This document shows positions 4,941-31,700 of a stretch of 64,000 nt of DNA, piece after piece. The translations under genes and the position numbers were made by a program. Origin of the DNA: a virus; the IMG/VR virus record IMGVR_UViG_3300045988_167796, positions 68,032 to 132,031 of that record; one strand, given 5' to 3'. The notes beneath the pieces are model-generated. The model searched no databases. It was given only the letters and a program-made list of their open reading frames with translations, and was not told the DNA's origin. Every line of letters begins with the position of its first letter. The stretch's first letter is position 1.

Positions 4941-6149
4941 TTGAAATTTGCAGTTGATAAAGGTATAATAAATTTATCATACGTGCAAGAACAAATTGAA
5001 ATGAATAAAAGAAAAGAATACTTAGATCAGCATATGTATTCAATTAGTCAAGGAAAGGACGGGAAGTGGAGAACGTATCTCCCGGATGATGAGCACGGGA
5101 GAAAGATGATAAAACGAGTAAATAAAAAAGATATAGAAGATATTGTTATTGAGTATTACAAAAATAAGGAAGTAAAAAAAATACCAGAAACATTTGATAA
5201 TGTTTATCATCATTGGAGAAAGGTGCAGGACGTATTAGTATCAGATAATACAATTGCAAAATACAATACAGATTATAAAAGGTATTTTTTAAATTCAGAT
5301 TTTTCTCAAAAACAAATAGAAAATATATCAGAAGAAGACATTAAAGTTTTTATTTGCAATACAGTGAAATCATTAAAACTATGTAAAAAAGCATGTAAAA
5401 CTTTGTTTGGATATGTTCATAATGTAATGAATAGTGCTATAATCAATAAAATAATCAAAGAAGATCCTACAAAGTTTTTAACAGCAAAACAATTTTATAA
5501 ATATTGTACATCAAATATAAAACCAGCAGAAACACGAATTGTATCTGATGAAGATATGAGTAAATTGTACAGACAGTTTAAAGATGACTATTTCAAACAT
5601 CCAAATTATATTCCTACATATGCCGTTCATCTCGCAACATTAACAGGAATGAGAGTAGGAGAGATCTCTGCTCTTACATGGGATTGTATTACTGACAAAT
5701 ATATAATCATTAACAAGTCTGAAAAATATAATCGTATAACGAAAGAATATTTTATTGATAAAACAAAAAATGGTAAAGAAAGAGTATTTCCTATTACTAA
5801 TGAAATAAAGTGCATTCTAGAAAAAGTAAAAAAAGTAGAAATACAGAACGATTATATTTGTGAGTGGGTGTTTGCTAATGAAAATGGAAGAATTCATGCC
5901 CCGGTCATTTCATCTTGTTCAAAGAATAAGTGTAGACAAATAGGCATAACAGAAAAAGGAATACATGCATATCGAAGAACGATCAATTCAAAAATGAGAT
6001 GCGAAGGAGTATCTGCTGTTGTAGCTGCTTCAATCTTGGGACATACAGAAGAGGTTAATGATAAATACTATACATTTGATGTCAGTAGTTTAGAAGAAAA
6101 AACAATGATTATATCTCGAATAAACTCTGAGATTGGTATTGCAAGGTAA
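4941..6149 (+). CDS. int: tyrosine recombinase / phage integrase
   Basis: R..GEISALTWDCI box, HAYRRT (HxxR) and C-terminal Y region; adjacent to att-like repeats. Confidence 0.85.
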   Translation: MKFAVDKGIINLSYVQEQIEMNKRKEYLDQHMYSISQGKDGKWRTYLPDDEHGRKMIKRVNKKDIEDIVIEYYKNKEVKKIPETFDNVYHHWRKVQDVLVSDNTIAKYNTDYKRYFLNSDFSQKQIENISEEDIKVFICNTVKSLKLCKKACKTLFGYVHNVMNSAIINKIIKEDPTKFLTAKQFYKYCTSNIKPAETRIVSDEDMSKLYRQFKDDYFKHPNYIPTYAVHLATLTGMRVGEISALTWDCITDKYIIINKSEKYNRITKEYFIDKTKNGKERVFPITNEIKCILEKVKKVEIQNDYICEWVFANENGRIHAPVISSCSKNKCRQIGITEKGIHAYRRTINSKMRCEGVSAVVAASILGHTEEVNDKYYTFDVSSLEEKTMIISRINSEIGIAR

Positions 6150-7578: not shown

Positions 7579-8133
7579 TTATTCATCAATTACTTCCCAT
7601 GTTTCTGATTCTGGTTCGCATGTACTATGTACAAAAGAGTTCTTTCCACCAGCTGCTTCATAAGAACGTATTAAATCATTGAAAGATTCCTTGTCCATAG
7701 ATGTCCATTTTTGCTCTTTATGATAAAATCTATATGACTGAGAAATTCTATCTTTAATTTTTGCTCTATCTTTAGAATCATTCTTTTCTTGCATATCTTG
7801 TATTGTAACAACTAAACCATTCACAATATTTTTAATGTCAATAAGAGAACTTTCTATGCTTTCCTGCTTTTCAGTCAACTGTTTTTGAATATCAAAAGAT
7901 TGTTCCCTGTCATGAACACGATTAGTTTTGAATTCGTCAATTTCTTTTTGCATATTATCTAATCGTTCTGTCAGTTTCTCTTTTTCAATACTTTTATTTG
8001 TTCTAAGACCAAGCGCCACGAGCACTTTTCCACCTAATTCTTTAGCTCCTATGATAATAAGAGCAGCCAAAATAATGCATATCAAAAACGTACTAAAACC
8101 TATTTCATTCACTCTATTAATATACTCTATCAT
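7579..8133 (-). CDS. putative holin or lysis-associated membrane protein (single N-terminal TM + coiled coil)
   Basis: hydrophobic segment FSTFLICIILAALIIIG; directly downstream of endolysin. Confidence 0.3.
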   Translation of the reverse strand: MIEYINRVNEIGFSTFLICIILAALIIIGAKELGGKVLVALGLRTNKSIEKEKLTERLDNMQKEIDEFKTNRVHDREQSFDIQKQLTEKQESIESSLIDIKNIVNGLVVTIQDMQEKNDSKDRAKIKDRISQSYRFYHKEQKWTSMDKESFNDLIRSYEAAGGKNSFVHSTCEPESETWEVIDE

Positions 8134-8169: not shown

Positions 8170-9810
8170 TCATGCATATAATGCTATTAACGTGTTGTAC
8201 CCTACGATTCCATCAACCGTTAAATTACCTTTTGATTTCTGATATTTTTTTACAGCTGACTCAAGTCCTGAACCGAATGATCCCGGGCATTCAACACCTT
8301 TTGGATCAATATTATTTAAAAGCATACTAATCTCGAGCACCGTAACAAGATATCCTTTCGAACCCTTTTTCATATTTACATGCTTCATGACTTCTTTAGT
8401 GTTATCACCAATTACTCCGTCAATTTTAAGACTACAATCTAAGTCTTTATTCAATGCAATCTGCAATGCCTTGCATAAAGTCTTTTTTGTCTCGGGGCCA
8501 TTTACACCGTCAGTTTTAATATCACATCCAACAAAATTATTCAAATGAATCTGAGCATTTTTAATAAGCTGATTTTCTGCAGAAGTGTCAGGAGCAGAAG
8601 GTTTAGAAGATGTATTTGTAGAGCCATTAGAAGTGATATCAGAGAAGTCAATTCCTTTGCCTGTGAACCTTAATCTCTTGTCCCACCCTTTAGAGTACAG
8701 GTACCACGACTGAGTTCTAATTTCGTTTCCAGAGTTATCAATTGTATCTGAAGTTCCTTCAGAACTTCTTGCATGAACAATATTATCTTTATCAATTGCA
8801 AGAGCAACATGATAATTAATATTTAACTCAATATCACCTTTTTGCATCTGTGCATGAGCGGTCTGATTTGTTGCTACAACTTCAAATCCGCAATTCAGCA
8901 TCTTCATCATATTACCTGTATATGAGCAATTCGCTTTGAGATATGTAGCCTGTTTTGTAAGACCATTTTTGATAAAAGCATAATAGAATGCAGTACATAC
9001 TAAACTAGAACAGTCAAATGATTTCGGCGTGTCAATGTTATATAAACTTCTAATTTTCTGACTGTATCCATGAGTATTATCTTTTGCAATATTTACAGCA
9101 AATTCAACAGCATCATTGATTACATTTTTGATAATTTCAGATGCAAGAGGAGCATTTGGAGTAGCAGTAGAAGTCGTATTTTTCAAGTTTCTACAATCCA
9201 GATATTTCTCTGTATAGCATACATCAAGATCAACAGTTGATCCATTAATTCCAGATACTTTTCCTGATTCACTATACTGAAAAAAATCACACGAAATAGG
9301 AGGAGTATGCATGGTTTGAGATGAATTATAGTGTGCAATCCACAAAGCATATCCTTTATTTTTTACTTCATCTGAATAGTAATTTTTATAAAAATCCATA
9401 TTAGCATAATATCCAGGTGTGTACCCGGATTTCTTGATAGCTTCGCAGAATTCAATTGTGAATTTAGAGCATTCATTTTTACCTAATGTAACACCTTTAT
9501 TCTTTGCTTTTGTTATTGTGTCATACTCGAAATCAAAGAAAATTGGTAAGTCAATATTATAATTCTTTATAGTTTCAATACATTTCGCAACTTCTTTTCT
9601 TACCTCTGCGAGAGTGGTAGAGTAGCAGAACCAATAGACACCAATCTTGATTCCATTGAGAGCACAAGATTTTGCATATGTATAGAAATTAGGATCTACT
9701 GTAGTTCCATATCCGGCACGAATAATCACATGATTATAATCTGCTTTTTTCAACTTTGCAAAGTCGATTGTACCTTGCCAGTATGAGATATCTATTAATT
9801 TTGTTGACAT
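8170..9810 (-). CDS. endolysin: GH25 muramidase + NlpC/P60 endopeptidase + PG_binding_1 domain
   Basis: N-term DISYWQG...D..G GH25 signature; FDCSSLV Cys/His NlpC-P60-like; C-term GxxT..AL..FQ-type peptidoglycan-binding repeats; aaggagg RBS. Confidence 0.85.
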   Translation of the reverse strand: MSTKLIDISYWQGTIDFAKLKKADYNHVIIRAGYGTTVDPNFYTYAKSCALNGIKIGVYWFCYSTTLAEVRKEVAKCIETIKNYNIDLPIFFDFEYDTITKAKNKGVTLGKNECSKFTIEFCEAIKKSGYTPGYYANMDFYKNYYSDEVKNKGYALWIAHYNSSQTMHTPPISCDFFQYSESGKVSGINGSTVDLDVCYTEKYLDCRNLKNTTSTATPNAPLASEIIKNVINDAVEFAVNIAKDNTHGYSQKIRSLYNIDTPKSFDCSSLVCTAFYYAFIKNGLTKQATYLKANCSYTGNMMKMLNCGFEVVATNQTAHAQMQKGDIELNINYHVALAIDKDNIVHARSSEGTSDTIDNSGNEIRTQSWYLYSKGWDKRLRFTGKGIDFSDITSNGSTNTSSKPSAPDTSAENQLIKNAQIHLNNFVGCDIKTDGVNGPETKKTLCKALQIALNKDLDCSLKIDGVIGDNTKEVMKHVNMKKGSKGYLVTVLEISMLLNNIDPKGVECPGSFGSGLESAVKKYQKSKGNLTVDGIVGYNTLIALYA

Positions 9811-9865
9811 ATGTGTACCTCCTTTACTTATTGATGCTTTATTTTAATAAAAATAATGTCATGTA

Positions 9866-9894
9866 TTGACAATTGTATATACATTGTTTAAAAT
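9866..9894 (+). promoter_or_regulatory. sigma-70 promoter TTGACA-17-TAAAAT
   Basis: consensus -35, good -10. Confidence 0.55.
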
Positions 9895-9936
9895 AGACTA
9901 TAGTGGCAGAAAATTTATATTTTGGGGGAAACCTTT

Positions 9937-10302
9937 TTGAAAAATAGAATCTGCGTTATCGTTTCGGTAGTACTATCCATACTGTTATGTATGTGCTTGT
10001 TTTATAATCTTGTCGCAGGTGCTCCAGAGGAATATGAATCTGCAATAAGATACATGATAAGCGCTGCTGGATTTTCTGTTATTGTCTCTGGCTTAGTCGG
10101 ATACTCCCTCTATAAAATTTTCTTGTTTGAAATATCAAAAGAGAAAAAAGATGTTAAAGAAACAAAGAAAATAACAGACAAATCATATCAAGATTCCTTA
10201 ACTGCATTAGTTAGTGCATTTGAAAAAGAAGGAGCGTTATCAGAAGATGAGATAAATAATCTACGCTCTTATTTAGACAAAATAGACAAATCGGAGGAAT
10301 AA
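9937..10302 (+). CDS. small membrane protein, partner of the M56 protease (ORF track start 9922)
   Basis: 2 TM segments; TTG start after gggggaa RBS; 4-nt gap to next gene. Confidence 0.45.
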   Translation: MKNRICVIVSVVLSILLCMCLFYNLVAGAPEEYESAIRYMISAAGFSVIVSGLVGYSLYKIFLFEISKEKKDVKETKKITDKSYQDSLTALVSAFEKEGALSEDEINNLRSYLDKIDKSEE

Positions 10303-10306
10303 CAGT

Positions 10307-11593
10307 ATGTTGCTATTATGGATGTCAGTTGCTGGATCAATTCCTCTGATTGTGTTTCTAATAACATGGTTTATTCAGAAAAACAGTTTTAATTATTCAC
10401 TTGGGAAGATATTGCTGTATCTGAGTATGATGTTCTACCTTGTGCCTTTTCAATTATTGACCAGGATGCTCCCAAATATCATGTACAATAATAACATCGT
10501 TAATAAAATTAGAATATTTAATTCATTGGAGTATCATTTTGAATATGATAAATCTGCATATATAAATATAGACGATGGAATTATGTGGGTCCCAAGATGG
10601 ATTATTTTCATTTTGCATATTTGGTTTATTATTGTTGTGTTTTTTGCAATATATCAAATAATGAAGTATAGAAAGTCTATACATTATATTTTAAAAGATT
10701 CCGAAGAAAGATCTTACGATATTAATGGTGCAGGAACTGTTTCTATTTTGATAAACAATAATATTACAACACCGTATACAGTTGGATTTATTCGTTTACA
10801 CATTGTCTTCCCGGAAAACATTATAGAATCCCAATATTCTTATTTGGTTTATAGACACGAGTTATGTCATGCGAAAAACTACGATGCGTTAATTAAACTT
10901 ATTTGCTTGATTATCATATGTCTTCATTGGTTTAATCCTATATCAATATTACTTTTGTTTTCGTATAGCACTTTATGTGAATATATAAGTGATGATTACG
11001 CTACAAAAGGACTGACTCATGAAGAAAAAAGAGAGTATGCAAAACTACTCTTGGATGTAGTGTCATCAAAAACAATGCCTGTTGTATGGAGAAATAACTT
11101 TTTGAGCACGGAATACCTATTGAAAAGGAGGCTGACGTATATTATGAAAAAGAAATTTTCAAAGATTCAAAAATTAATCACAGTTATAGTTTCAATTGTT
11201 ACGGTTTTAGCATGTGCTGTAACAGTATTTGCATACGAACCATTTGTGTCAACTACAGATAACGCAATAATTGAACTTTCGGATGGAGATTTTGTTGATT
11301 TTGGTTTTATTGAATCATTTGATAGTATTACAGATGAAATTAATTTCCATGGACATGAAGAAATATTCATTACAGATGACGGAGAGTATATTATTATCGA
11401 CAACGACCATTCATCATATGCCATTTGTAATCATACATTTGCAGATGGCAGATACTCAAAACATATCAGCAATAGTACTGGTGGATGTACGGTAAAGATC
11501 TATGATGCGCAGATTTGTACAAAGTGTAAATATGTCGTTGTAGGAGATCTTATTAGCACTACGACATATGTTACGTGCACCCATACTAGCTAA
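10307..11593 (+). CDS. BlaR1/MecR1-like M56 family membrane metalloprotease with Cys-rich C-terminal domain
   Basis: multi-TM N-term; HELCH (HExxH) followed by HWFNP, as in M56 signal transducers; C-term lacks a penicillin-binding fold and is Cys/His-rich. Confidence 0.65.
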   Translation: MLLLWMSVAGSIPLIVFLITWFIQKNSFNYSLGKILLYLSMMFYLVPFQLLTRMLPNIMYNNNIVNKIRIFNSLEYHFEYDKSAYINIDDGIMWVPRWIIFILHIWFIIVVFFAIYQIMKYRKSIHYILKDSEERSYDINGAGTVSILINNNITTPYTVGFIRLHIVFPENIIESQYSYLVYRHELCHAKNYDALIKLICLIIICLHWFNPISILLLFSYSTLCEYISDDYATKGLTHEEKREYAKLLLDVVSSKTMPVVWRNNFLSTEYLLKRRLTYIMKKKFSKIQKLITVIVSIVTVLACAVTVFAYEPFVSTTDNAIIELSDGDFVDFGFIESFDSITDEINFHGHEEIFITDDGEYIIIDNDHSSYAICNHTFADGRYSKHISNSTGGCTVKIYDAQICTKCKYVVVGDLISTTTYVTCTHTS

Positions 11594-11620
11594 ATTCACA
11601 TATGCATACACACGGCATTG

Positions 11621-11656
11621 AAAAGAGAGGCGTAATTGCCTCTCTTTTACATTTTA
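11621..11656 (+). terminator. rho-independent terminator
   Basis: aagagaggc-gtaatt-gcctctctt then TTTACATTTT. Confidence 0.6.
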
Positions 11657-11662
11657 TACGCA

Positions 11663-11691
11663 TTGACAAAACAAACAAATGTTCGTATAAT
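11663..11691 (+). promoter_or_regulatory. sigma-70 promoter TTGACA-17-TATAAT with AACAAATGTTCG motif in spacer
   Basis: consensus hexamers; drives short ORFs 11713-11975. Confidence 0.55.
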
Positions 11692-11978
11692 ATACATACA
11701 GAGGTGATATTTATGACAAATGATTATATGGTAACAGTCCCAACAAAAAAAACAAGGAATTTCTGTAATAGCATCATTTTCTACGAATGGTGATATTATG
11801 CCTTTATACTTTCAAACAGTTGAGAATGAAGAAAAGTATTCATTTCGTGTCAGAGTAATCGGTAAAAAAGAGAATAATGTTATATATTCATTCAATTGTA
11901 CTTACAATCACGTAGGCATAGAAAAACATGTATGTCTGAATTATTGGATAAGAGATCATATATGGACTATATAAAATA

Positions 11979-14420
11979 TTATACTTCTACAAGCGTATAA
12001 ACACCATTACTGTTTGTATTACATTCATCAATAAATGTGAAATACCTGCAATTTGCTGTAGTAGTGAAGTCCAATACTAATCCGCCTCTTGGTTCGTTAT
12101 TTTGTACACATCCATTTTCCATATATAAATATACTTTATTCTCATCATAACATCTAGGTGCAATAGTACAATCATTATTAAATATATCTTTCGTATTATT
12201 TCTGGTTATTGTATACCTGGTATTTGGTTTTACTTTGATATAACCATTATATATCGCCCTAGTACCATCGCTAGTTACAAACTCACCATTAGATAATGTT
12301 ATATCAGCATTATAAAGAATTTTAGATGTACTTATTGTATAATCAAATCCTGTACTAATTGTGATCCTTATTCCGTCTTCATGTACAGAACTTCCGTTAC
12401 TGTATGTATAGTATACACTTACATATCCCTCGTTTACTGAAACGTCGCTTGTTGCATTTCCCTTCATGCATTCAAGAGATCCTTCATAATTTGTATCCCA
12501 ATACCATGTTAAATCGGAACCAGATACCGTTATTGTAGTGTCATCCATAAATGTAATAATAGCAACAGCATCAGAAGGATCGAATGCGTCTCCATATTGA
12601 TAATTTGTTTTTGGCATTGTTTGAAATGTGATACTCTTTGGTACACTTCCTTCTAATGCTTTTAATCTGTCCATAAGACTATCTATAATACTTAAAGTCA
12701 CAGTTTCAGTAGAATTGTCACCTTTAGTGTATGTAATAACATTCTCATCTGCGCTTAATGATTTAATGTATGTTGTTGTAATTTTCTGATTTGACGAATC
12801 GTTGGTTGCTTTTAGAGAAGCGGTAGCAGTATTGGCGTTCCCATCAAGATTTCCTATGAAAGTATTTGCAACAATTTTACCGTTATCTTTAATAACCATA
12901 AGATTAGTAAAATTACTGCCAGAATCAAGACTCTGCTGAAATGAGAAAACTTCTGTGTCATCAGTTGAATCGTTTGTTAAGTTAATTCTTTGTTGATATG
13001 TGCCGTTATCCCAACATAAATGTTGTGGCCCAACAAATTTTATATTACCAGTAATAGTATCTCCATTTTTATTTACAGGAGTATATCCAAGTGCATTTGT
13101 AATATTTGATGATGTGATTTCACTACGAATTGTAGCAGAAGATTTATTTTCAACGTTTCCAAGACCTATATCCGTTTTATTTACATCTAAATATAAGCAT
13201 AATCTGCCATTTTTATATTGATAAATTGGATGTGTTGCAGAAATGTTCCCTCTATATGTATCATATGCATCACCAATATATATATATACATATTCGTCTT
13301 CAGACTCCGGCAATTGTTGAGAATACATTTCATCAGAAATATAAAATAAACCATTAGCAATTATCCCTTTAAGATAAATTGGTTTATTTGCTGTAAGTGT
13401 CTGACCGCAATTTAATGTATATCTTAAATCTGTATTTGAAAATGCCTGATATATTCTTGCTCCTGTTAATGAACCGGATGAAATTTTATTATTATTCCCA
13501 GGATTAAAGAAATATATTTCCTGCGGGTAAAAACCAGATGTGTTTTTAGATTTTGTTGTACCAGTTCCAGATGCAGTTACTATACTTTGAAATGTATTTT
13601 TTGTTGAATCACGCATAATTATAGTGTATCCATATACTCCATTTGTTCCAGCAGTCACACTAGATATGTCTTTATGTAATTGTGATATTGTATTATTATC
13701 GCCGGATTCTTGTAAACCATTATTACTTCCATCAAATTCATTATATCCGCTATAATTAGTACTTCCAGTCCCAGGCACATCAGAAAATTTACATATTGTA
13801 TCATAAAATGAGAAAATACAATTATCCTGTTCTATTAATTCTATTTTGAATGTCCTTGCATATGATGACGACGTTGGATTTGCGGAGCTTCTTAGACCAA
13901 TACCTACCAAATGCCCATAACCATTTGTATATCCTGTAGAAGTACATGAATATAAAGTATGATAATATAACGTTCTATAAGAAGTGGAATAATGAGCATT
14001 TGTACATTTATATATTGTTCTTAATGATTGTGAACCCCATAATTCTACTTCAAAGAATCCTGTATAATTATTTTGGCCAGGCACTGAAGAAGAAATTCTA
14101 TATTTTATATGCCATTCATCATAATATGTATTAGGTCTAATATAGCCGAAATAAAATGTCCCTTCATTGAAATTGTTTGCAGATGCATATATGTTTGAAT
14201 ATGTATGTGATTCTATAATAGTTTTTTGCGCATTAGGAGAACCAATGTATGGAAGAGACATCCATGTAGACGTACCGTTCCCTATTTTATAATGCCCATT
14301 ATTAATTCCGTCTTTTGTATACGCTTTTTCACCAAGTAATAGTACTGGATTAGAAGAAGACCATTCACTTTCAGTCTTATAGGCATTTATTATTCTTGTT
14401 TTTAAGGTATTAGTTGCCAA
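11979..14420 (-). CDS. tail fiber protein 2 (N-terminus paralogous to 14496..17072)
   Basis: MATNTLKTRI... shared N-term; S/T/N/Y-rich beta-rich fibre composition. Confidence 0.55.
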   Translation of the reverse strand: MATNTLKTRIINAYKTESEWSSSNPVLLLGEKAYTKDGINNGHYKIGNGTSTWMSLPYIGSPNAQKTIIESHTYSNIYASANNFNEGTFYFGYIRPNTYYDEWHIKYRISSSVPGQNNYTGFFEVELWGSQSLRTIYKCTNAHYSTSYRTLYYHTLYSCTSTGYTNGYGHLVGIGLRSSANPTSSSYARTFKIELIEQDNCIFSFYDTICKFSDVPGTGSTNYSGYNEFDGSNNGLQESGDNNTISQLHKDISSVTAGTNGVYGYTIIMRDSTKNTFQSIVTASGTGTTKSKNTSGFYPQEIYFFNPGNNNKISSGSLTGARIYQAFSNTDLRYTLNCGQTLTANKPIYLKGIIANGLFYISDEMYSQQLPESEDEYVYIYIGDAYDTYRGNISATHPIYQYKNGRLCLYLDVNKTDIGLGNVENKSSATIRSEITSSNITNALGYTPVNKNGDTITGNIKFVGPQHLCWDNGTYQQRINLTNDSTDDTEVFSFQQSLDSGSNFTNLMVIKDNGKIVANTFIGNLDGNANTATASLKATNDSSNQKITTTYIKSLSADENVITYTKGDNSTETVTLSIIDSLMDRLKALEGSVPKSITFQTMPKTNYQYGDAFDPSDAVAIITFMDDTTITVSGSDLTWYWDTNYEGSLECMKGNATSDVSVNEGYVSVYYTYSNGSSVHEDGIRITISTGFDYTISTSKILYNADITLSNGEFVTSDGTRAIYNGYIKVKPNTRYTITRNNTKDIFNNDCTIAPRCYDENKVYLYMENGCVQNNEPRGGLVLDFTTTANCRYFTFIDECNTNSNGVYTLVEV

Positions 14421-20678: not shown

Positions 20679-23600
20679 CTAAATTGATAATTCAATAAGT
20701 ACATACTTTTTATATGTTGCATAGGAATATCCATCTACGTATCCTGGGGAATTATTATCACCAGATATTGATATAAAATAAGTTGAATATCCCGTATTAG
20801 GAGATCTCGTCCAATAAGATCCAAGAACCCCATCATATGTATAACGCGCCCTTGTTGCGTCAGAAGTAATAAAAGGAGTAACGGTTCCTTCGTAGTTATA
20901 TGGTTCACGGTTATAACTTGAATCGAGTTCTACGATTGCAGGTATTGTAATATAGCAATCTGATGTAATTGTTTCTGATGATTTATTACCAGCTGTAGAA
21001 GGTATCTTACATTGTTTCAGAAGTTGCCTCCATTGAATTGGTATGGCATTATAAAACCTGTTATTTAACGTAGTTTTAAGTGAAGTATTTGCCCATCCGC
21101 CATCATTTGATGAAGAATTTTTATTTAAAATCATCTGATTTTCAAGAAGGTTTGCTCCTAAAAACGTCATAGATGTTTTTGATCCAGACCCATCGGATAG
21201 ATAATACTTCCTAAATCCAGACATTTCTAATGTTATGTTCTCATGCGTCCATGCGGCAATATCTCTACATACACTATCTCCAAGGTCTGAATACCATAAT
21301 TTACTCCAATATACTGTCCCTATAGCATAATTTTCGTACACGCCATCATCTGCACGCGCACATCCAAATACTAATGTTTGAGTTCCTGCTACAGATCTTG
21401 TTGCTTTTAATGTGCTATATTCAATATTATCCGAAGATAAATTACTCCTATATACATGAATTTGAGTATCACCTTTTTTGTGACGCATAACAAGCATATC
21501 TCTATCATTTACACCAGAGCTATTTGTTGATGAAGTTCCCCATGTTACACGATATTGTGATGAATACCATAATTTAAATCCATTTGATCCGTCTCCTTGA
21601 TAACATTGCATCAGAACAGAATTTTCTGTATTAGATTCTGACCATTTATAATCAACAGCAAGCGTCCAATCTTTATCTATATTCAAAAGATCTATTTTTG
21701 TGTCTATATAATTACTTCCAGAGAATACAGTTTTATCAGAAATTAATACTACTTCTGATATGTCATCACAATGATAATCAATTCCCATATTAAATGATAT
21801 AGAATCTTTAAGCTGTACATATGTCTGTTCTTTACCTAATTTTTTTAAAGCATATATTTGTACTGGTCGCATATCTGAAATATCTAAATCATCAAAACAT
21901 CCATCTGTATATTCAAATGAATCAAAAATAGCATTAATATCTTTATTCCCATCTATATATCCACTTTTATCCCAATGAGAAAATAAATAATAATTATATG
22001 CAGGTTCTTCTTCTGTATACACTGGGACATCTCCAACGTATTGTATAATACTTCCATATGGACCTGAAGATTCATAAAGTACTACGCCATGATTCAAATA
22101 ACGTACAGTATATTCACGAATTTTTTCAGAATATGTTGCAGTATATGTTTTGTTTGAGAACATTGGTACAAATTCAATATCCCATGAATCGAACGTAAAA
22201 TCTGTACTTACAGTACTTTCTTTTGTTGGTATGTCAATAGGATTTGTATCCCTTGTAATAGGATCTACTGCATATTCACCTTTGTCAACATATTGCACAT
22301 CAAGTATAGTACCATCATCATTCATAAATGTTGCTGTGAATTGTATAATTAATGTGCTGTATGATATGATAAGATCAGGCCATGCTTCAGTATAATCCGC
22401 TAATAAGTTTTGTTTTACAATAGGAGAATAAAAGTTTCCTGAAAGCACAGAAACCAATGAATTATAACCGTTGTTATCAATACCTGCAATGTTGATTAAT
22501 CTGTCAAGAATAGAAGTGTCTGCGATTCCTTCATCAGTTCCCCAGTCAATACCAATAAGACGAACATTAGTAAGAGCAGGAGAAGATGTTATGTATTCAT
22601 AAGAGTTAATAGCAGGAGTGTTTTCAATGGTTAAAGTTCTCAGATTTTCAAATCCAGCTAACTGTAAATCTGTAATATATGAAAGATTTTTAACTGTAAG
22701 AGATGTTACTGCTGGGATATGCGCAATTCGTATCTTTCCGCCATTGGCAAATGATACACCTGTTAAACCAGAACCTTCTGCATAAAACTCTAATAAATTT
22801 GGACATCCAGTAAGATTTAAACTCATTACAAGATTTGGAGTGTTTTTAATATTCAGATATTCAAGGAGAACATTGTTGCCAATGTTAAGATTTGTTAAGA
22901 ATCCATTAGAGTAACCTGCTGTATCATTACCAATGATAAGTTCTTTAAGCTTAACAGCTTTTGAGAAATCATTATCATGAATATAGCAAGCAGATACGTC
23001 TCCAAGAGACTGTATACGAGACGCACAATAAATAAGAACAGCAGTGTCATCCATGGTTTCAAATGGACATTCTATATCATATTGCACTCCAGCTTTTGCA
23101 CGGATCTGAGTACGATATGTTGCCCCAAACATGACTGATAAATACATATCACTATACGGAGTTAAATGAAGTGTATAATTTGGAGTCACAATAGCATCCA
23201 CAGGAGTATTACATCTGAACATGATTTGATCAGAAGTAGCAGTGGTTCCAAAATATTTTGTAGCAATATATTTTTCCTGGTCACGTTCAAACTGCCTTCT
23301 CTGATATTTCTTTTTACCATTCATCATAGATACTAAGAATCTAGGCGTGCCACCTTCATAAGTTCTTCTATATTTTCTGATATAATCAATTCTCCAAAGT
23401 TCTTCCGGGAAAGAAGATTGAGCTTCATCGAATTGATTAATAAGACCTTCTGCGCTCCATGCACCTTTACTTTCACATTGCAAGAACATATTTACTAATT
23501 CATCGTGCATTAAATCTCTGATACGACAGAAGAATTTTGACTCTGCTGCGTTGAAGATATAACCTGAAGAAGGATCACCGTCAGTACGATAATCTGTATC

Positions 23601-26600
23601 TTCTTTACCATATGTCATGGTAAGCTCGCCGCTGTTATTTATTCCAAGGCCTGTATCGTTATCATAATTCCACAATTCAAATCTATAACCATTATTAATT
23701 GCAGCTGCTTCATCGTCAATTGTATAATATTTTGCATCTTCACCCAAAGCTTCAGCTTCTTCTTTAGATATATATACTTTTGAATAATGCCAAAAAGTGT
23801 TTTTGGCTCTGTTGTCAATCATCGTATATCTTTCTGTAAACAGATAGAAATACAAAGCAGAATCAACAATAAACCAATTCTTTAATCCGGATACAAATTC
23901 CTCGTCTGTAGATGTTGAAACGAAACGATAGAATTCTCTCCATTTCGCCATGTTAGCTTGATGTTGTTCGTCAGTGATTCCGTCTATTTCATATCTAAAT
24001 CCATATGTTCCCTTTTCATCAAACTTATCTGCGTCAAGAGCAGCAAGAGCTTCTTCCGTTCCTGAGAATGTAGAATTTGGAAGTGTATTATCCATAATCT
24101 CTACTACAAATTCATTAGGATCGTTTACGTCAGCAACTCTTGTATAGTCAGTTTTTTTAGAATCGCCGATGTTACCCAACGCATAAAAATGCCATTCACA
24201 ATCCTGAAATTCTCTATGTGTTGATAAATCAGGATCTGATTCTTTTAAGAATACAATACAATCAACAAATTCCATTGTATTTTTAACATTTGGATTCTTT
24301 TTCTGAGCAACGCTTGTATACGGGAGATAATCATTGTAACGCTTCTGTAATTTTGCATTATTTTCATTTTCTGAAGAAGCAATATTTACTTTTATATTAC
24401 AGTAATTAGTAGGTACAGAATTTCTCGTTAAAGTAATTTTACCAGTACCATCTTCATATCTTGTACCGTCACCCATAGTAAGAATAGTCTTATAATTTTC
24501 ATCATAAGTAATTTTGCTGTTTGTATATACTCCATCGAAGCACATCAAAAGGTCTAAATTCCTTCCAGCATATCCATATTCATTAGAAGTAGTACCCTGG
24601 CCGCTATGATAACAGTTAATTGCTTTCCAGTTATCTAGAACAGGATCACCACCAGTATGGATGCATTCTACAGATGTATCTTTTACAAAGTCTTTCTTAT
24701 CATTTGTGAAATGAGGGCATTCAATCTTAATAACCTTTTTATCTGGACATGCTTTTGCTGCTGATTCAGGTGTAAGCTGATTATTTTCATCATATATCTG
24801 GTTTTTTGTATATCTTGAAATCATTTCTGTAGCATTACGTGCATCAGCAATATAATTAGATAAAACACCGGAATCGGTAAGACTACTTGAATATGCTTTC
24901 ATTCTGTAAATAAGTACATCACAATCATTTGAACCTATAATAATAGGCACCGGAGTTGTTTGAGTAAATGTATGGTCGGAAGTATAAATCATAGGTCTTC
25001 CAGGAGTACCATCTTCATAAGAAAGCACAAGCGGAATTTCTGTATCTTTGAAAATATTAAATTCAAATTCAATGATATCTTCTTCACTATACGGTATATA
25101 TAATTTATCAACAGAAGAACGCACATAAGCTTCATGGACATTCATCTGCAAACCAATCTCTGGATTGTCGGTCTGACATGTCAAGAATGTAGCATTACTT
25201 TTACTAACATTTTCAGTTTTGAAAATCAGCTTAAATTCTTTACCGTTTTTTCTTGCGTCATCAGCAAAAAGATTGTAAGAGAACGTTGCTGAAGTACCAG
25301 CTTTTACACAGAAATACTGATCACCATTAGAATCTAACTGATAACCACCATTAACCCAGTCAAAGTTATCAGATACGGTCATAGCAACTGTACTGTTATT
25401 TTCATCATACCAAAGTTTGTTTTCGTCATTATTTGAACGTCCAGTTGGATTGAAATCAAAAGCAAGATTCGCTGTTACTGGTTCTACATTAATATTCAGC
25501 TTTTCAATTGTTACATTAATGGTTTTTACTACATCGCGGCATTGAATAGTTAATACATGAGGACCAATTTCGTCAGATTTGAACTGCCATGTTTGAGTAG
25601 GAGAATCAAGTGTAAGAGTAGATGTAACAACACCATCAACAGAAAGAGTTACTTTTGGAGATTCAGTATTTGGATCATATACCGTATAGATTATATTTGT
25701 AGAATCATACTGCATTGCAGTAAAATTCTGATAGATACATCCAATTACAGGTACATCGCTTGTAGAGTCATACCAAAGAATATCTTTATATATATGATTT
25801 GTTTCAATTGTTGAGTTATTAATTTCTGCTGTGATATAAACATCTAAAAGATGCGCTCCGTGAGTCTGCTCTGGAAGCGTATAAGACATTGGTAGACCAG
25901 AAGATGATGTAACTACAGTGCCAATTTCTTTACCGCCAAGAACGAAATGTACTGTTTTTTCAATAGAACCATATGGAGTATAATCAAATGCTATAGTTCC
26001 AATAGGGTATGTATATCTATCATTAAAACTACTTTCGATACGTACATCAATCATTTGCACAGTCCATGTTTTAACTGAAATAGCTCCAGCAGCATCTGTA
26101 ATAGTAAGAGTAAGTTTTTGAGTACCAACAGATATATATTCAGTTGCATCAAAAGTATTTTCGCCCTGTATAGCGATTGTTGTTGCAATTATTGTATTTC
26201 CAAGTTTCCATACAGCGGTACCTTCTCCGGTATCATCGCCAGAACTATCTACTGATGAAAAGTTATATTTAATAATAGCCTTATCGTTCTTTGTAATAGT
26301 AACAGGAGAAGTAGTAATACGGTCGATTGTAATCGTTGTAGAAGTTGATCCCCCGCCACCACCTCCTACAATTGTACTTGCGCTGACAACTGTTTCTGTC
26401 TCAGTTCCGTCTTCATTTTCAGAAACTTCAATAAGTTGAAATAATCCCGTTTCTGGATCATAAGTGTGTCTATAGTGTACAGTTGGATCAGTATTCGCAT
26501 TATTAATTTGCTCCTCTAATTCTGAAAGCTTAGAAGAGATAGCTGTAATATTAGATTTATTTGTATCAGTTGAACTTTTTATCTGATCAATGTTTGACTG

Positions 26601-27794
26601 AATAGATGAAATATCTGTACTATTTACTTTGTCTTTTAATTTCTCATCAATCTGCGTAGATGTATAATAATTGCTTTCAAGCATACTATTTGTATTACTT
26701 ATATCTTTTTGCAATTGTGTAACTGTTTCATCGTTAGATGTTTTATACTCATTTAACGCATCAGATACCACGCCAACTGTATTATCAATATCTGTTTTTA
26801 AAGAAGATTTAAACGTAGACGTCCATTCAGATGTTGGATTTGTAGAAAGTTCATGCGATACAATAAGTTCTTCGCCATTTTTAAATAACATAATATTAGT
26901 AGAACTATCATAATCAACCTTAAGATTTGCAAGTCCGTCGATAGCGTCAATTTTATTTTGCACTTCTTCAAGAACATTAGAAAAGTCCATATTATTAATA
27001 ATCTGGTCTACTTCACTTTTTGTATAATAATTCTGTAATGTAATAGCTAACTCTGATTTTACATTTGATGTAATATCGTCAGAAACATTTGAAACCTTTT
27101 CGTCTACTGTATTAGCTATAGCCTGAGCTTGATTAGCTGCTTGCCGCGCAGATTCAACATATGAATTTGCTTCATTTACGAGATTTGAAACTTGTTGAAG
27201 ATATGTATCCCATCCTTGTGATGGTTCTATTGCTCCATTACCAGATAATGATTCTAGTATACTGATACTATTCTTATTTGGTCTTGTTTTCCACACATAG
27301 TTTTTATCACCTTTAGTTGTAGAAATTGTACCGGATGCTATAATTTCAAATTCAACATAACCTTTAACTGCACAAACAGACGCATCTGCTAACCAGTAAA
27401 ATCTTATTTTTTCTGAATTCGCAACTACGTTAATAGGGACGCTAAGACCATCATATCCATTTGCATTAACATAATGAATTTGAAAAGTCATATTTGTTAA
27501 ATCAATGCCGTCATAATACCTTGGTAATTCAAATGGGATGACCTGACTGTTTTCTTCTTGTGTAATATTAATTTGATTAACGCTGGTTCGTATATTCTTC
27601 AAATCATCCACATACGAATAATCGTTATCTTCATAATCGTCTATCCAATCATATAAAGCATTTTGTACTCGTATATATGGGTCATCTACATTTTCTATTA
27701 ATGATACTGTCGTATTTTTGTTATTAGCAACAGTAGAAGTCTGAGAATCTACATTAGAAGCTGCAACAATAGCTTGATTAAATGAACTAGACAT
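20679..27794 (-). CDS. giant (2371 aa) receptor-binding / tail fibre protein with coiled-coil, poly-Gly linker, LRR-like and LamG/concanavalin-like regions
   Basis: LRR-like L..L.L..N periodicity around residues 1500-1620; C-terminal LamG-like block; GGGGGGS linker. Confidence 0.55.
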   Translation of the reverse strand: MSSSFNQAIVAASNVDSQTSTVANNKNTTVSLIENVDDPYIRVQNALYDWIDDYEDNDYSYVDDLKNIRTSVNQINITQEENSQVIPFELPRYYDGIDLTNMTFQIHYVNANGYDGLSVPINVVANSEKIRFYWLADASVCAVKGYVEFEIIASGTISTTKGDKNYVWKTRPNKNSISILESLSGNGAIEPSQGWDTYLQQVSNLVNEANSYVESARQAANQAQAIANTVDEKVSNVSDDITSNVKSELAITLQNYYTKSEVDQIINNMDFSNVLEEVQNKIDAIDGLANLKVDYDSSTNIMLFKNGEELIVSHELSTNPTSEWTSTFKSSLKTDIDNTVGVVSDALNEYKTSNDETVTQLQKDISNTNSMLESNYYTSTQIDEKLKDKVNSTDISSIQSNIDQIKSSTDTNKSNITAISSKLSELEEQINNANTDPTVHYRHTYDPETGLFQLIEVSENEDGTETETVVSASTIVGGGGGGSTSTTITIDRITTSPVTITKNDKAIIKYNFSSVDSSGDDTGEGTAVWKLGNTIIATTIAIQGENTFDATEYISVGTQKLTLTITDAAGAISVKTWTVQMIDVRIESSFNDRYTYPIGTIAFDYTPYGSIEKTVHFVLGGKEIGTVVTSSSGLPMSYTLPEQTHGAHLLDVYITAEINNSTIETNHIYKDILWYDSTSDVPVIGCIYQNFTAMQYDSTNIIYTVYDPNTESPKVTLSVDGVVTSTLTLDSPTQTWQFKSDEIGPHVLTIQCRDVVKTINVTIEKLNINVEPVTANLAFDFNPTGRSNNDENKLWYDENNSTVAMTVSDNFDWVNGGYQLDSNGDQYFCVKAGTSATFSYNLFADDARKNGKEFKLIFKTENVSKSNATFLTCQTDNPEIGLQMNVHEAYVRSSVDKLYIPYSEEDIIEFEFNIFKDTEIPLVLSYEDGTPGRPMIYTSDHTFTQTTPVPIIIGSNDCDVLIYRMKAYSSSLTDSGVLSNYIADARNATEMISRYTKNQIYDENNQLTPESAAKACPDKKVIKIECPHFTNDKKDFVKDTSVECIHTGGDPVLDNWKAINCYHSGQGTTSNEYGYAGRNLDLLMCFDGVYTNSKITYDENYKTILTMGDGTRYEDGTGKITLTRNSVPTNYCNIKVNIASSENENNAKLQKRYNDYLPYTSVAQKKNPNVKNTMEFVDCIVFLKESDPDLSTHREFQDCEWHFYALGNIGDSKKTDYTRVADVNDPNEFVVEIMDNTLPNSTFSGTEEALAALDADKFDEKGTYGFRYEIDGITDEQHQANMAKWREFYRFVSTSTDEEFVSGLKNWFIVDSALYFYLFTERYTMIDNRAKNTFWHYSKVYISKEEAEALGEDAKYYTIDDEAAAINNGYRFELWNYDNDTGLGINNSGELTMTYGKEDTDYRTDGDPSSGYIFNAAESKFFCRIRDLMHDELVNMFLQCESKGAWSAEGLINQFDEAQSSFPEELWRIDYIRKYRRTYEGGTPRFLVSMMNGKKKYQRRQFERDQEKYIATKYFGTTATSDQIMFRCNTPVDAIVTPNYTLHLTPYSDMYLSVMFGATYRTQIRAKAGVQYDIECPFETMDDTAVLIYCASRIQSLGDVSACYIHDNDFSKAVKLKELIIGNDTAGYSNGFLTNLNIGNNVLLEYLNIKNTPNLVMSLNLTGCPNLLEFYAEGSGLTGVSFANGGKIRIAHIPAVTSLTVKNLSYITDLQLAGFENLRTLTIENTPAINSYEYITSSPALTNVRLIGIDWGTDEGIADTSILDRLINIAGIDNNGYNSLVSVLSGNFYSPIVKQNLLADYTEAWPDLIISYSTLIIQFTATFMNDDGTILDVQYVDKGEYAVDPITRDTNPIDIPTKESTVSTDFTFDSWDIEFVPMFSNKTYTATYSEKIREYTVRYLNHGVVLYESSGPYGSIIQYVGDVPVYTEEEPAYNYYLFSHWDKSGYIDGNKDINAIFDSFEYTDGCFDDLDISDMRPVQIYALKKLGKEQTYVQLKDSISFNMGIDYHCDDISEVVLISDKTVFSGSNYIDTKIDLLNIDKDWTLAVDYKWSESNTENSVLMQCYQGDGSNGFKLWYSSQYRVTWGTSSTNSSGVNDRDMLVMRHKKGDTQIHVYRSNLSSDNIEYSTLKATRSVAGTQTLVFGCARADDGVYENYAIGTVYWSKLWYSDLGDSVCRDIAAWTHENITLEMSGFRKYYLSDGSGSKTSMTFLGANLLENQMILNKNSSSNDGGWANTSLKTTLNNRFYNAIPIQWRQLLKQCKIPSTAGNKSSETITSDCYITIPAIVELDSSYNREPYNYEGTVTPFITSDATRARYTYDGVLGSYWTRSPNTGYSTYFISISGDNNSPGYVDGYSYATYKKYVLIELSI

Positions 27795-28751: not shown

Positions 28752-31700
28752 TTATCTTGAAACAGCTTGACAGTTACTATTTGTACTATAAACTTTAACG
28801 TTGCTAATATAATTTGCTATTTCTGAAACAGTTATAGCTGCTTGTGCGCTCATAGAGAATCTAAATTTACTTGCATTTGATGGAGCTACAAAGCTTATTG
28901 ACTTATCTGTAAGACCGCCGTTTAAGAATCCAGTTGCATTGTCATACAATAGAATAATTGGATTGGCTTTAACCGTCTTAGATGTATCTCCCATGACATA
29001 AATTGTATCATTTGCTGTACTTACTACATTTTCAGAAGAATCATAGAAACAACCGAACATTGCTTTCATTGATCCGTCTGAAGATCCATCAGTATATGTA
29101 ATCGTGATAATATCTCCTTCATTACATGAGTAATCATTCAATGGTGTAATTGAACCATCGGAGAACGGATAGTTCTTACCGACTGTTTGAGTTTCGCCGC
29201 TAGGTACAGTATATTTGGAACTTGATGCTGACCAACATATACCTGTTGCATCCCAGTCCGTCAGATAATCTGTTCCTGTTACAAGAGAATCAATCAATGT
29301 TCCGAAATCTGTTACATCTGTTCCTTCATCTCCACCACCAGATGAGCTACCATTAAACAGTTCATCATACTTCTTAGTAAGAGCATCTGCAATTAGTGTT
29401 GCTAACACATCTGCTCCTGTATTGTTCGGATGTTTATATCCATCTGTTTCTGCATCCAAATAAGTGGCGTAATTTGAACTATCCCATGCAGTTGTACAAT
29501 CTACACATAAAATATTTCTGGCAGAGCAGAATGATTTCATTCTATCTGCATAATCAAGAACTGTGAAACCAGAACTATTCTGACCGGAAATTCCTAAATT
29601 CAATTCATAACAATAATGAGGTGTGAAGAAAATCAACAGTGCATTTGGATTATCAGTTCTAATTTTTGTATACATCTTGGTCAGCCAAATTTCATATCCA
29701 TCCAATGATACATTGTTTAGCCAATCATTGATACCTGATTCATACGTGATAATATTTGCTTTACCAATATAATCATTATAGTTACTATTTTGTGATGATG
29801 TCACATTGTTAGTAATATTTGAATATATTCCTGCAGTTGTCTGTCCTCCATATCCGCACCATCCTATTTTGTTTGGATATTCTGATAGATAATAGAATTT
29901 ATTTCTCAACGCTGGAATTACCACTGCTTTTTCTGTAATACTATCACCGATACACAAATATTGTGTAGATGCCTTTTCAAAGTATGTTACAGTAAATGTT
30001 GTATCGTCTGTCAACGATCCGCTATCTCCGCTATCTCCAGTATCACCAGAACCTTCACTTCCTCCTGAAGAGCTTCCGCCATTATTAGAAGATCCTGTAA
30101 ATATCTTATAAATATCGGCAGGAGAGAGTACGATAACATTAGGCCCAGCGTTTGTAAATGTACTTTCCAATGCTGACGCATCAAGTCTTTGGGTGACAAT
30201 AAATGATGAATCTTGTCCAATATTCCCTGTTGTTCCGTATGGTATAAATTTATACGCTTGATCAGTACATCCATTTTTATGGTCATCAATATGAAAAGTT
30301 CCAATAGACTGAATTGGATTACAGAATATTACTCCATTAAATTTTACATTGGAATCAGAAATAAATGATCTTACCGTATCACTGATAGAACCATTTTTAT
30401 CAGATTCCCATTTTCGTATATATCCAGCAGATGACGACCAAACTCCTTCAAAATTTGTGTTCTCACATGCCTGAATATATACACCATGTCCCATACTTTC
30501 CATGATATGTATTTTTGAATACTTTGCTATTCCGCCCCTTACATTTAATCCATAATAATTCGGTTCATATCTGCCGTTTGCACTGTAATTTTCAGATTCA
30601 CTACCAAATAATAATCCTTTCCCACTACGTTCAATGAAGAAATTACTAAATGTACAGTTTCCTCCAGAGCAAACGTATAAACCATCTCTAAAACTTCTAC
30701 AAATCTGGAAATGATCAAAATCGTTATCTGTACTTCTTGTAATCATTCCATAACCACAATCATCAATCCTAATATGATGCGGTGCTATAACCCAAACACC
30801 TAATTCTACAGCTATACCAACTGCAAATTCTTGAATCTGTAAATTTTCAAATACTGAATGGTACAATCCATTATAATCAGCTTGTGTTTCTGGTGTATAT
30901 CCGTCTTTTCCTATTTTCAATCCAATGTGTGTAGTATAAGTTTTCTCTCTGTTTGGATAACTTTGATATTCAATTGTTTGCTGTAAAATTGTTTTATAAT
31001 TATCCATATTTGATACATGCTCACTATTTCCATAATTGAATGATCCACGTATAGTAATATTCTTAATGCCGCACGGTCTTGGATATCCTTCTTTATCTTC
31101 TATGTTTTCAATATAGACAGCAGGCACATTTTTATATGTACTCATATATAAGACTGCACCTTTAGTCTCTCCCTCAATTACAACGTTATATGGAATTGTA
31201 ATAGTGTCATCAATATGATATGTACCAATTGGGAAATACATTTTACCGCCACCAGAATCAGATAATGATTGTAACGCGGAATTGATCGCTGTTGTATTTG
31301 CAGTTGCAGCAGAACTGTCATCTACAATAACATCATAATTTAAGATATTTGTTATCGATGAATCAACAGTAGTTGAGCTGCCTGTTCCACCTTCTGGAAT
31401 ATTTATAGTAATATCTGATAATCCAGTGTATGTCTTAGTGACAGCTCCAGTAAAATTAATTTTTCCGATGCCGATATTTGTTGGTGTAATTTCTATAGAC
31501 TTTGCAGTACTACCATCGTAAGTATCTGAAATCCATTCATCATTTGTACCATTTCCTTGCCTAATTGTTAAAGTTGCGTTAGTATTTGCAGAACCATTTG
31601 ATGTAGGATACGTTGGAACTACTAAGAATCCGTCATCTCTTATTTTAACTTGCACTGTATCGTCTGATGTAGCAGAATATGCCTTGATACCACCCAATGT

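Follow-up and report, generated by a model that had tools for sequence, protein, structure and literature searches.

In the textbook BlaR1/BlaI system, a receptor protease destroys a repressor and thereby turns genes on. Here, we analyze a two-gene cassette that resembles this pair and is located at positions 9866-11656 (+ strand) of a 64,000-nucleotide (nt) stretch of viral DNA (IMG/VR record IMGVR_UViG_3300045988_167796, positions 68,032-132,031). The whole stretch is hereafter called the window, and coordinates refer to it unless another locus is named. The cassette is a self-contained unit that consists of a promoter, a gene for a 121-residue protein with two transmembrane (TM) helices, a gene for a 428-residue M56 protease and a terminator. 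Like the Staphylococcus aureus BlaR1/BlaI and MecR1/MecI systems, it encodes an M56 gluzincin in a four-TM scaffold, with an HExxH...E motif, a re-entrant helix, a conserved arginine and an equivalent of the autocleavage loop. As in BlaR1/BlaI, a small partner gene is adjacent, and the C-terminal helices and hydrophobic P1' motif of its product are homologous to those of BlaI. However, the cassette departs from BlaR1/BlaI in both components. The penicillin-binding sensor of BlaR1 is replaced by a predicted eight-ligand Cys/His β domain on an acidic tether, and the winged helix of BlaI is replaced by a two-TM hairpin, with alanine rather than asparagine at the P1 position. Moreover, no β-lactamase or PBP2a target gene is found here, and the cassette is phage-borne.

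M56 proteases that do not sense β-lactams and that function outside antibiotic resistance are represented by the atypical BlaR/BlaI systems, namely BlaR-BlaI of Mycobacterium tuberculosis and M. abscessus and PvmS/PvmR of Pseudomonas aeruginosa (bioRxiv 10.64898/2026.08.03.742534). The protease described here retains the HExxH and ExxxD motifs, as these atypical proteins do. The atypical systems have no ectodomain and keep a DNA-binding BlaI-type regulator, whereas the present cassette combines a new ectodomain with a regulator that lacks a DNA-binding domain. A literature search of incomplete coverage returned no description of a membrane-anchored BlaI without a helix-turn-helix (HTH) domain or of this ectodomain. 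In our assessment, the chances are slightly better than even that the cassette is a BlaR1/BlaI-type proteolytic signaling pair that has been rewired at both ends and whose output is non-transcriptional.

The M56 protease and its Cys/His ectodomain

The protease gene (10307-11593, + strand) encodes a protein that, by its sequence, is a true M56 family member with all catalytic motifs. The 428-residue product matches Pfam Peptidase_M56 (PF05569) with 79.3 bits (cut-off 31; E-value 3.6e-22) over residues 25-279, and a profile of 52 homologues aligns residues 4-353 with S. aureus BlaR1 (8exp) at an E-value of 6.9e-21. The AlphaFold2 (AF2) model exhibits predicted local distance difference test (pLDDT) scores of 80-93 across the TM and protease part. 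The top five Protein Data Bank (PDB) matches of this model in Foldseek are all BlaR1 chains from cryo-electron microscopy structures (probability 1.00), with target-normalized TM-scores of 0.57-0.64 against BlaR1 chains that contain the TM and protease domains only. An earlier note, made from the sequence alone, had assigned the protein to M56 on the basis of multiple TM helices, an HELCH motif and an HWFNP block. All of these features are present, and the Pfam score, the BlaR1 match and the predicted fold indicate that the HExxH motif is not fortuitous. The protein is not BlaR1 or MecR1 proper, given that its NCBIfam scores are far below cut-off (48 bits against 400 for blaR1_generic, and 18 bits for BlaR1 and 15 bits for MecR1 against 1200) and that the penicillin-binding domain is absent. 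PADLOC returned no match for the protease or its partner.

Hydropathy and the AF2 model place the TM helices of the protease at residues ~2-23, 30-52, 97-121 and 286-308 and a re-entrant pair at residues 193-233. Homology and the positive charges that precede TM4 suggest an orientation in which the catalytic domain is cytoplasmic and the C-terminal ectodomain is outside. The catalytic core (10856-10993, + strand), as delineated by conservation and by alignment with BlaR1, comprises H184-E-L-C-H188 (residues 184-188; nt 10856-10870), the re-entrant HWFNP motif (residues 207-211) and E225-x3-D229. In BlaR1, the zinc ion is liganded by H201, H205 and E242 with the help of a stabilizing arginine (PMC9834060). 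The protease residues align to BlaR1 H201, E202, H205, E242 and R294, such that E225 occupies the position of the third zinc ligand, E242, and R275 corresponds to R294. Among the 52 homologues, whose identity extends down to 27%, H184, E185, N210, E225, D229 and R275 are invariant, and at least 90% share H188, H207 and P211.

BlaR1 cleaves itself between S283 and F284 (PMC9834060). The equivalent site in the present protease is predicted to be the N264-F265 bond in a W-R-N-N-F motif (11096-11101, + strand), as deduced from the BlaR1 alignment. F265 is positioned 10 residues before the invariant R275, as BlaR1 F284 is before R294. The P1 residue is asparagine in 36 of the 52 homologues, and the P1' residue is leucine or phenylalanine in 48. 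A separate feature is found shortly downstream, where the codons AAA AGG AGG (K-R-R; 11120-11147, residues 272-280) generate a Shine-Dalgarno-like AAGGAGG sequence 14 nt before Met280. This methionine is a conserved internal residue that precedes TM4, and many database fragments of the family start there. The AAGGAGG sequence and these fragments probably reflect coding constraint plus truncated contigs, with initiation at the internal methionine as a less likely explanation.

The alignment with BlaR1 stops at approximately residue 353, and the ectodomain is an unrelated Cys/His domain of 120 residues. The extracytoplasmic part (residues 309-428; 11231-11590, + strand) starts after the last TM helix (~286-308) with an acidic, disordered tether of ~40 residues and continues into a β domain with strands at residues 378-388, 394-404 and 410-421. 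Eight residues of this domain, C374, H376, H386, C394, C404, C407, C424 and H426 (nt 11426-11584), are invariant in the 52 homologues. Five cysteines, an odd number, accompanied by three conserved histidines argue for metal binding and against disulfides. The ectodomain most likely holds two metal ions, probably zinc, through these eight residues. In the predicted three-strand meander, the ligands could be arranged into two four-ligand sites, with C374/H376/C404/C407 at one end of the sheet and H386/C394/C424/H426 at the other. The core of the ectodomain displays pLDDT scores of 74-85 when modeled alone and of 51-69 when modeled within the whole protein. No Pfam or NCBIfam model covers the domain, and no solved structure matches it, in agreement with the earlier proposal of a C-terminal Cys/His domain that does not bind penicillin and has no recognizable fold.

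A profile of the ectodomain retrieves 759 clusters (50% identity) among 1.84 billion representatives. The full ligand pattern is found in 140 of the top 144 matches, and nearly all full-length matches are M56 proteins of 415-460 residues. A standalone class of the ectodomain, represented by matches of 140-190 residues, was considered and rejected. One such match, P0303 at locus L040, is a 5'-truncated M56 fragment whose reading frame is open to the contig start, and others among the short matches start at the conserved internal methionine before TM4; at least some of the short matches are thus truncated M56 fragments. At the membrane-proximal end, directly after the last TM helix, the sequence T-V-x-A-Y-E-P (11222-11242, residues 306-312) is nearly invariant at T306, A309 and Y310 and contains an AxA motif similar to a signal-peptidase site. 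SpsB is responsible for the shedding of S. aureus BlaR1 at the corresponding position (PMC9834060), and the ectodomain might be released at this AxA-like site.

The membrane-anchored partner

What is the substrate of the protease? The product of the small gene (9937-10302, + strand) keeps the cleavage and dimerization helices of BlaI and has lost the winged helix. It is thus the obvious substrate, and its build speaks against a transcriptional output. The earlier note had recognized this protein as a co-encoded product with two TM helices, and both statements hold; its homology to BlaI had been missed. Hydropathy locates TM1 at residues ~5-27 and TM2 at residues ~37-62, connected by a short outside loop with an invariant P30. 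TM2 is followed by an acidic/basic linker (residues 63-82) and a BlaI-type pair of C-terminal helices (residues 83-117).

The relationship to BlaI emerges from several profile comparisons. Residues 66-114 of the partner match positions 66-114 of the 115-position Pfam Penicillinase_R profile in exact register (E-value 2.7e-4), and among 20 partners no Pfam family other than Penicillinase_R recurs. The NCBIfam MecI model matches with an E-value of 3e-5, and the MecI/BlaI models as a group yield E-values of 3e-5 to 1e-3. The partner also matches PHROG 1077, annotated as 'transcriptional regulator'. Compared with the PDB, the partner profile has MecI and BlaI as its three best matches, which align on LVLNF...EIEELRNIL. 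Most tellingly, M56 genes with the same ectodomain at four other loci (L015, L029, L038 and L039) are paired with canonical Penicillinase_R repressors (E-value ~2e-23). When the C-termini of the L015 and L029 repressors (e.g. GSLKNFVSAFTGKQKLSQKEKNELLDYIDRL) are compared with the two-TM partners (DSLTALVSAFEKEGALSEDEINNLRSYLDKI), hhalign gives a probability of 96% and an E-value of 4.7e-9. A winged helix is absent from the partner: residues 1-64 form the two TM helices, and the Pfam, NCBIfam, PDB and hhalign matches are all confined to the C-terminal 35-50 residues. Given the lack of a winged helix and the sub-threshold Pfam score, the partner is regarded as a derivative of the BlaI/MecI/CopY family rather than as a member in the curated sense. 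By homology, it retains the dimerization and protease-recognition module of BlaI and carries a TM hairpin in place of the winged helix.

BlaI is cleaved between N101 and F102, as mapped experimentally (PMC9834060). The bond that aligns with this site, and is predicted to be scissile in the partner, is Ala94-Phe95 in the motif L-V-S-A-F (10216-10221, + strand). Among 129 partners, the motif reads L-V-S-A followed by L, F or I, with alanine at P1 in 127 and leucine, phenylalanine or isoleucine at P1' in all 129. The positive-inside rule suggests that both termini of the partner are inside the cell. Such a topology would expose the BlaI-like module to the cytoplasm, on the same side of the membrane as the M56 active site. 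Taken by itself, cleavage of the partner by its co-encoded protease is fairly probable, and we hold this part with somewhat more confidence than the full proposal, which includes the nature of the output.

The TM hairpin is the best-conserved segment of the partner, with 47-83% identity compared with 19-48% in the linker. Across 20 partners, whose identity falls to ~19%, P30 and Y39 are invariant, and A43, S47 and A94 are conserved in at least 90%. On the evidence of its sequence, the hairpin is functional. The same data bear on the possibility that the small open reading frame (ORF) is a degraded, functionless blaI and that the M56 gene is a passenger in a decaying remnant. Such decay would fit the two loci that lack the partner and the absence of a Pfam match above threshold in the partner. 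However, at least 290 partner clusters share the same build, and their conservation includes the two invariant hairpin residues and the P1 alanine, A94. The catalytic and ligand residues of the M56 protein are invariant as well, and three prophages keep the pair in the same place despite a divergence to 55-65% identity. A remnant is therefore barely credible.

Conservation of the hairpin also matters for a second possibility, in which the partner is a decoy or anti-repressor. Given that the retained domain is the BlaI dimerization domain, the tethered C-terminal domain could heterodimerize or compete with soluble host paralogues of BlaI. These would then be sequestered at the membrane, or the protease activity would be buffered, and the final output would be transcriptional and exerted in trans. 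Locus L029 lends some weight to this idea, in that it shows how a true BlaI can place an NHL protein and a MacB/FtsX ATP-binding cassette (ABC) transporter, both encoded next door, under the control of this M56 subfamily. However, a mere tether would need no sequence-conserved TM hairpin, and a soluble BlaI gene is linked in none of ~25 loci. We consider the decoy mechanism unlikely.

The earlier note had instead proposed that the protease cleaves a phage or host repressor and thereby acts as an alternative prophage induction switch that responds to an extracellular cue. Canonical relatives do cleave a repressor (PMC9834060), and more distant members of the present family are paired with true BlaI repressors. 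Furthermore, the catalytic residues of the protease are intact, and the cassette is located in a temperate phage with an integrase. However, a search for a BlaI/MecI-like cleavage target in all frames of the 64-kilobase window identified only the small protein of the cassette itself. Neither a canonical BlaI nor a second BlaI-type cleavage motif is found in any frame of the window, outside which the lysogeny module lies. In addition, the cognate partner has no DNA-binding domain, and the pair is mostly chromosomal and outside prophages, which indicates a function that is not specific to induction. The proposal thus finds no support in the window or in the distribution of the cassettes, and an induction switch is quite unlikely.

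Distribution, transcription unit and phage carriage

The M56 protein has about 100 full-length homologues, and the partner profile retrieves at least 290 clusters (90% identity), all of which are annotated as 'hypothetical protein' and have no Pfam domain. Some individual partner sequences are each present on hundreds of contigs of Blautia wexlerae, 'Ruminococcus sp.' and related isolates. When species-representative genomes were scanned with a 10-sequence alignment, 23 loci emerged, nearly all from Blautia and other Lachnospiraceae. In a comparison of 27 loci, the M56 gene and the small gene are the only shared gene families; no third component is conserved alongside them. As further partners, MOP/MATE flippases, ABC exporters and a two-component system were evaluated and rejected, each being confined to a small number of synteny groups. 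The majority of homologous cassettes are located on chromosomes, outside prophages.

In a rough neighbor-joining tree, M56 proteins partnered with BlaI are basal and those partnered with two-TM proteins are derived, and phage and chromosomal copies are interleaved. The window belongs to a mobile clade of at least 53% identity. This clade includes three related prophages (the window, L001 and L031/32) that carry the cassette between the endolysin and a tail fiber, a copy that adjoins an IS630-type transposase beside the nan operon (L033/34), an island by thrS (L008/L010) and another chromosomal site (L035). Within the phage lineage, the M56 proteins share 55-65% identity and the endolysins share 56%. 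The similar divergence of the two suggests that the cassette is an old, retained accessory rather than a recent insertion. Most likely, the module is native to the chromosomes of Blautia and other Lachnospiraceae, and one mobile clade has long been carried by temperate phages. M56 genes are very scarce in deposited phages, with 2 weak matches among 50,697 records, and a nucleotide search of the 50,697 phage genomes with the cassette gave no match. Scans of IMG/VR with the family alignment, a single protein and the endolysin retrieved no relatives of the phage lineage or of the M56 gene.

Several neighboring genes at homologous loci were noted. At L029 (7356-11433), genes for a secreted NHL-repeat protein and a MacB/FtsX-type ABC transporter come after a canonical BlaI-M56 pair with the present ectodomain. 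At L027 (86-1951), an M56 gene without a partner is preceded by genes for an extracellular triple FMN_bind protein and an HMA (CopZ-like) protein. As pointers to the cue, the NHL and MacB/FtsX link of L029 and the HMA gene of L027 are weak hints. A 'Cysteine-rich small domain' protein adjoins the pair at L015 (5552-5860). At L008 (20-5537; Blautia sp. HCP3S3_G3), the cassette is part of an island next to thrS in which we recognize by eye a group-II-intron-type reverse transcriptase, a 625-residue protein with a TIR-like N-terminus and a PD-(D/E)XK transposase-like gene.

In the window, the cassette is bracketed by its own transcription signals. A predicted sigma-70-type promoter, TTGACA-17-TAAAAT (9866-9894, + strand), matches the consensus at 11 of 12 positions. 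A predicted intrinsic terminator (11621-11658, + strand) consists of a 12-base-pair stem (11621-11648), a 4-nt loop and a T-rich tail. Both had been reported in the earlier note and are confirmed here. This AT-rich DNA shows no general excess of promoter-like sites (20 found, 17 expected), and thus the case for the cassette promoter draws on how good a site it is, on where it lies and on its conservation at related loci. L001 and L010 keep both the promoter and the dyad within it, and L033 does so in part. The terminator, which is kept in L001 and L031, is the sole terminator match in 9700-12100, where shuffled sequences give a mean of 0.8. The dyad is an inverted repeat, ACAAT-N10-ATTGT (9870-9890), between the -35 and -10 elements; L001 and L010 retain it, and the L033 copy differs by one mismatch. 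The repeat may serve as the operator of some regulator, or it may merely be conserved promoter sequence. BlaI/CopY-type TACAnnTGTA operators are not consistently found upstream of the cassettes, and Rfam yields no match in 9000-12500.

The small gene most likely starts at TTG 9937, which gives 121 residues, and not at the mechanical ORF start TTG 9922, because the former is located 7 nt past a GGGGGA ribosome-binding site and this arrangement is conserved in close homologues. A GGGGAA-N7-TTG-AAR-AAR arrangement is present in all mobile-clade homologues. Only 4 nt separate the stop codon of the small gene from the ATG of the M56 gene, which has a GGAGGA ribosome-binding site and appears to be translationally coupled. 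This operon structure agrees with the co-transcription that had been predicted for the two genes.

The cassette is located between two gene modules on the opposite strand. On one side, and divergent from it, is an endolysin with profile matches to GH25, NlpC/P60-like and PG_binding_1 domains (8170-9810, - strand). On the other side, and convergent with it, is a tail-fiber gene (11979-14420, - strand) with weak tail-fiber PHROG matches, whose product has an N-terminus homologous to those of the L001 tail-fiber genes. The window also encodes a tape measure protein (50903-56128; 1741 residues), minor tail and tail-fiber proteins, an HNH endonuclease, a tyrosine integrase (4941-6146) and a dUTPase. 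The tape measure, tail proteins and integrase support carriage by a temperate phage or prophage, in line with the placement between tail fibers and lysis genes given earlier. Among other genes of the window are those for very large proteins of 2371, 2765, 1275 and 1318 residues (20679-27794, 38341-46638 and 28752-36535, - strand); the 1318-residue protein has tail-protein PHROG matches and the 1275-residue protein has no PHROG match.

The cassette is most likely an independently transcribed accessory unit, of moron type, in a temperate phage lineage, as judged from its sequence context. Like phage morons, it runs from its own promoter to its own terminator on the strand opposite to the flanking late-gene modules, near a prophage end and here between the endolysin and a tail fiber, and it has homologues outside phages, in bacterial chromosomes; the moron-like build suggested by the earlier note is thereby upheld. 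Unlike the usual moron, its cargo is a complete transmembrane sensor-protease pair and not a single effector, and unlike a recently added moron, the cassette has diverged along with the phage lineage. Composition does not set the cassette apart as foreign to the phage, in that its guanine-cytosine content (0.31) shows no contrast with that of its flanks (0.32-0.34).

Does the position of the cassette beside the endolysin reflect a role in lysis timing? The partner is small, with two TM helices, a predicted N-in/C-in topology and a charged C-terminus, and its gene lies directly beside the endolysin gene, upstream of which there is no holin-like gene on the endolysin strand. It could therefore be a class-II-holin-like protein or antiholin whose cytoplasmic tail is clipped by the sensor protease. 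However, the lysis genes lie on the other strand, the cassette is preceded by a sigma-70-type promoter of its own, many chromosomal loci outside prophages hold homologous pairs, and the partner has no holin family match in Pfam or PHROGs. Furthermore, a 184-residue TM protein encoded downstream of the endolysin is an alternative holin candidate. Lysis timing is very unlikely to be the function of the cassette. The gene for the 184-residue protein (7579-8133, - strand) is located just downstream of that for the GH25 endolysin, and its product has a TM region at residues ~7-43 followed by a coiled coil. It is the only membrane protein near the endolysin on that strand, is kept in L001 and L031, and belongs to no PHROG family.

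A second transcription unit (11663-11974, + strand) directly follows the cassette terminator, with TTGACA-17-TATAAT (11663-11691) as a perfect promoter. The gene of this unit has an 84-residue homologue that follows the cassette in L001 (9441-9695) and L031 (11457-11711). In the window, the gene is split into ORFs of 26 and 58 residues by a frameshift at an A8 run (~11744-11751), and homology returns in the shifted frame (QGISVIASFSTNGDIMPLYFQT vs RVPVIASFAADGKIIPLYVQV). The frameshift could be due to a sequencing error, a pseudogene or slippage. Neither window ORF has a Pfam match, and the L001 homologue has no PADLOC match.

Proposed mechanism and biological meaning

From the homology, architecture, conservation, distribution and genomic context of the cassette, we propose a model for its topology, metal binding, cleavage, signal and output. 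First, an extracytoplasmic cue would act on the ectodomain, either as a ligand bound by a zinc-stapled module or as oxidation or metal loss at metal-thiolate sites. Second, the protease would be activated as in BlaR1, possibly with autocleavage at N264-F265. Third, the active protease would cut the membrane-tethered partner at A94-F95, which would break the cytoplasmic dimer of the partner and free an acidic peptide of 27 residues. Fourth, the output would be an altered state of the TM hairpin, which would be a membrane effector or would modulate a host membrane machine, rather than de-repression of a promoter. The lack of a DNA-binding domain, of a third conserved gene and of another BlaI target in the window, together with the conserved hairpin, suggests that the output is most likely non-transcriptional.

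Anti-sigma factors of the RsiW/PrsW type hold a sigma factor that is freed on cleavage. The proposed mechanism is similar to this type of proteolysis in that a signal-activated membrane protease would cut a membrane-tethered regulator. However, the proteins are non-homologous, no bound cargo or sigma gene is linked to the present cassette, and the predicted cut is located in a BlaI-type dimerization domain.

Several points weigh against a rewired BlaR1/BlaI-type pair with a non-transcriptional output. The Pfam score of the partner, 21.6-21.7 bits, is just below the cut-off of 22.6, and the PDB profile matches of the partner are weak (E-values of 0.03-0.2). The case for homology to BlaI thus draws mainly on gene position and on the hhalign comparison, in which two canonical sequences were used, and cleavage of the partner is predicted from homology alone. 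On the sensor side, the ectodomain models are of moderate confidence, and the assignment of two metal sites is a topological one that follows the predicted strand order. Two loci, L016 and L027, hold an M56 gene without the small partner, and thus the protease can persist alone. Finally, the non-transcriptional output is argued from absence, namely from the missing HTH and the missing third gene, and a trans-acting target elsewhere in the host is possible.

A more specific form of the rewired signaling pair can also be formulated. The cassette would be a transcription-independent, protease-gated membrane switch in which an extracellular metal-thiolate sensor of redox state, metal or ligand clips a cytoplasmic clasp on its own two-TM effector, and temperate gut phages would carry it to alter the host membrane. 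We offer this version tentatively and regard it as unlikely. If it is true, the host membrane would be changed in response to an outside cue, for example for superinfection exclusion, for control of lysis or cell death, or for envelope protection.

The cassette keeps the machinery of BlaR1/BlaI but places the substrate in the membrane without a DNA-binding domain, which implies an undescribed kind of output. Blautia is among the most abundant genera of the human gut, and the cassette would therefore be a common, unstudied sensory module of the microbiome. The module also moves on phages, insertion sequence elements and islands. Knowledge of its cue and output would establish a new branch of regulated proteolysis as well as a new function in lysogenic conversion.

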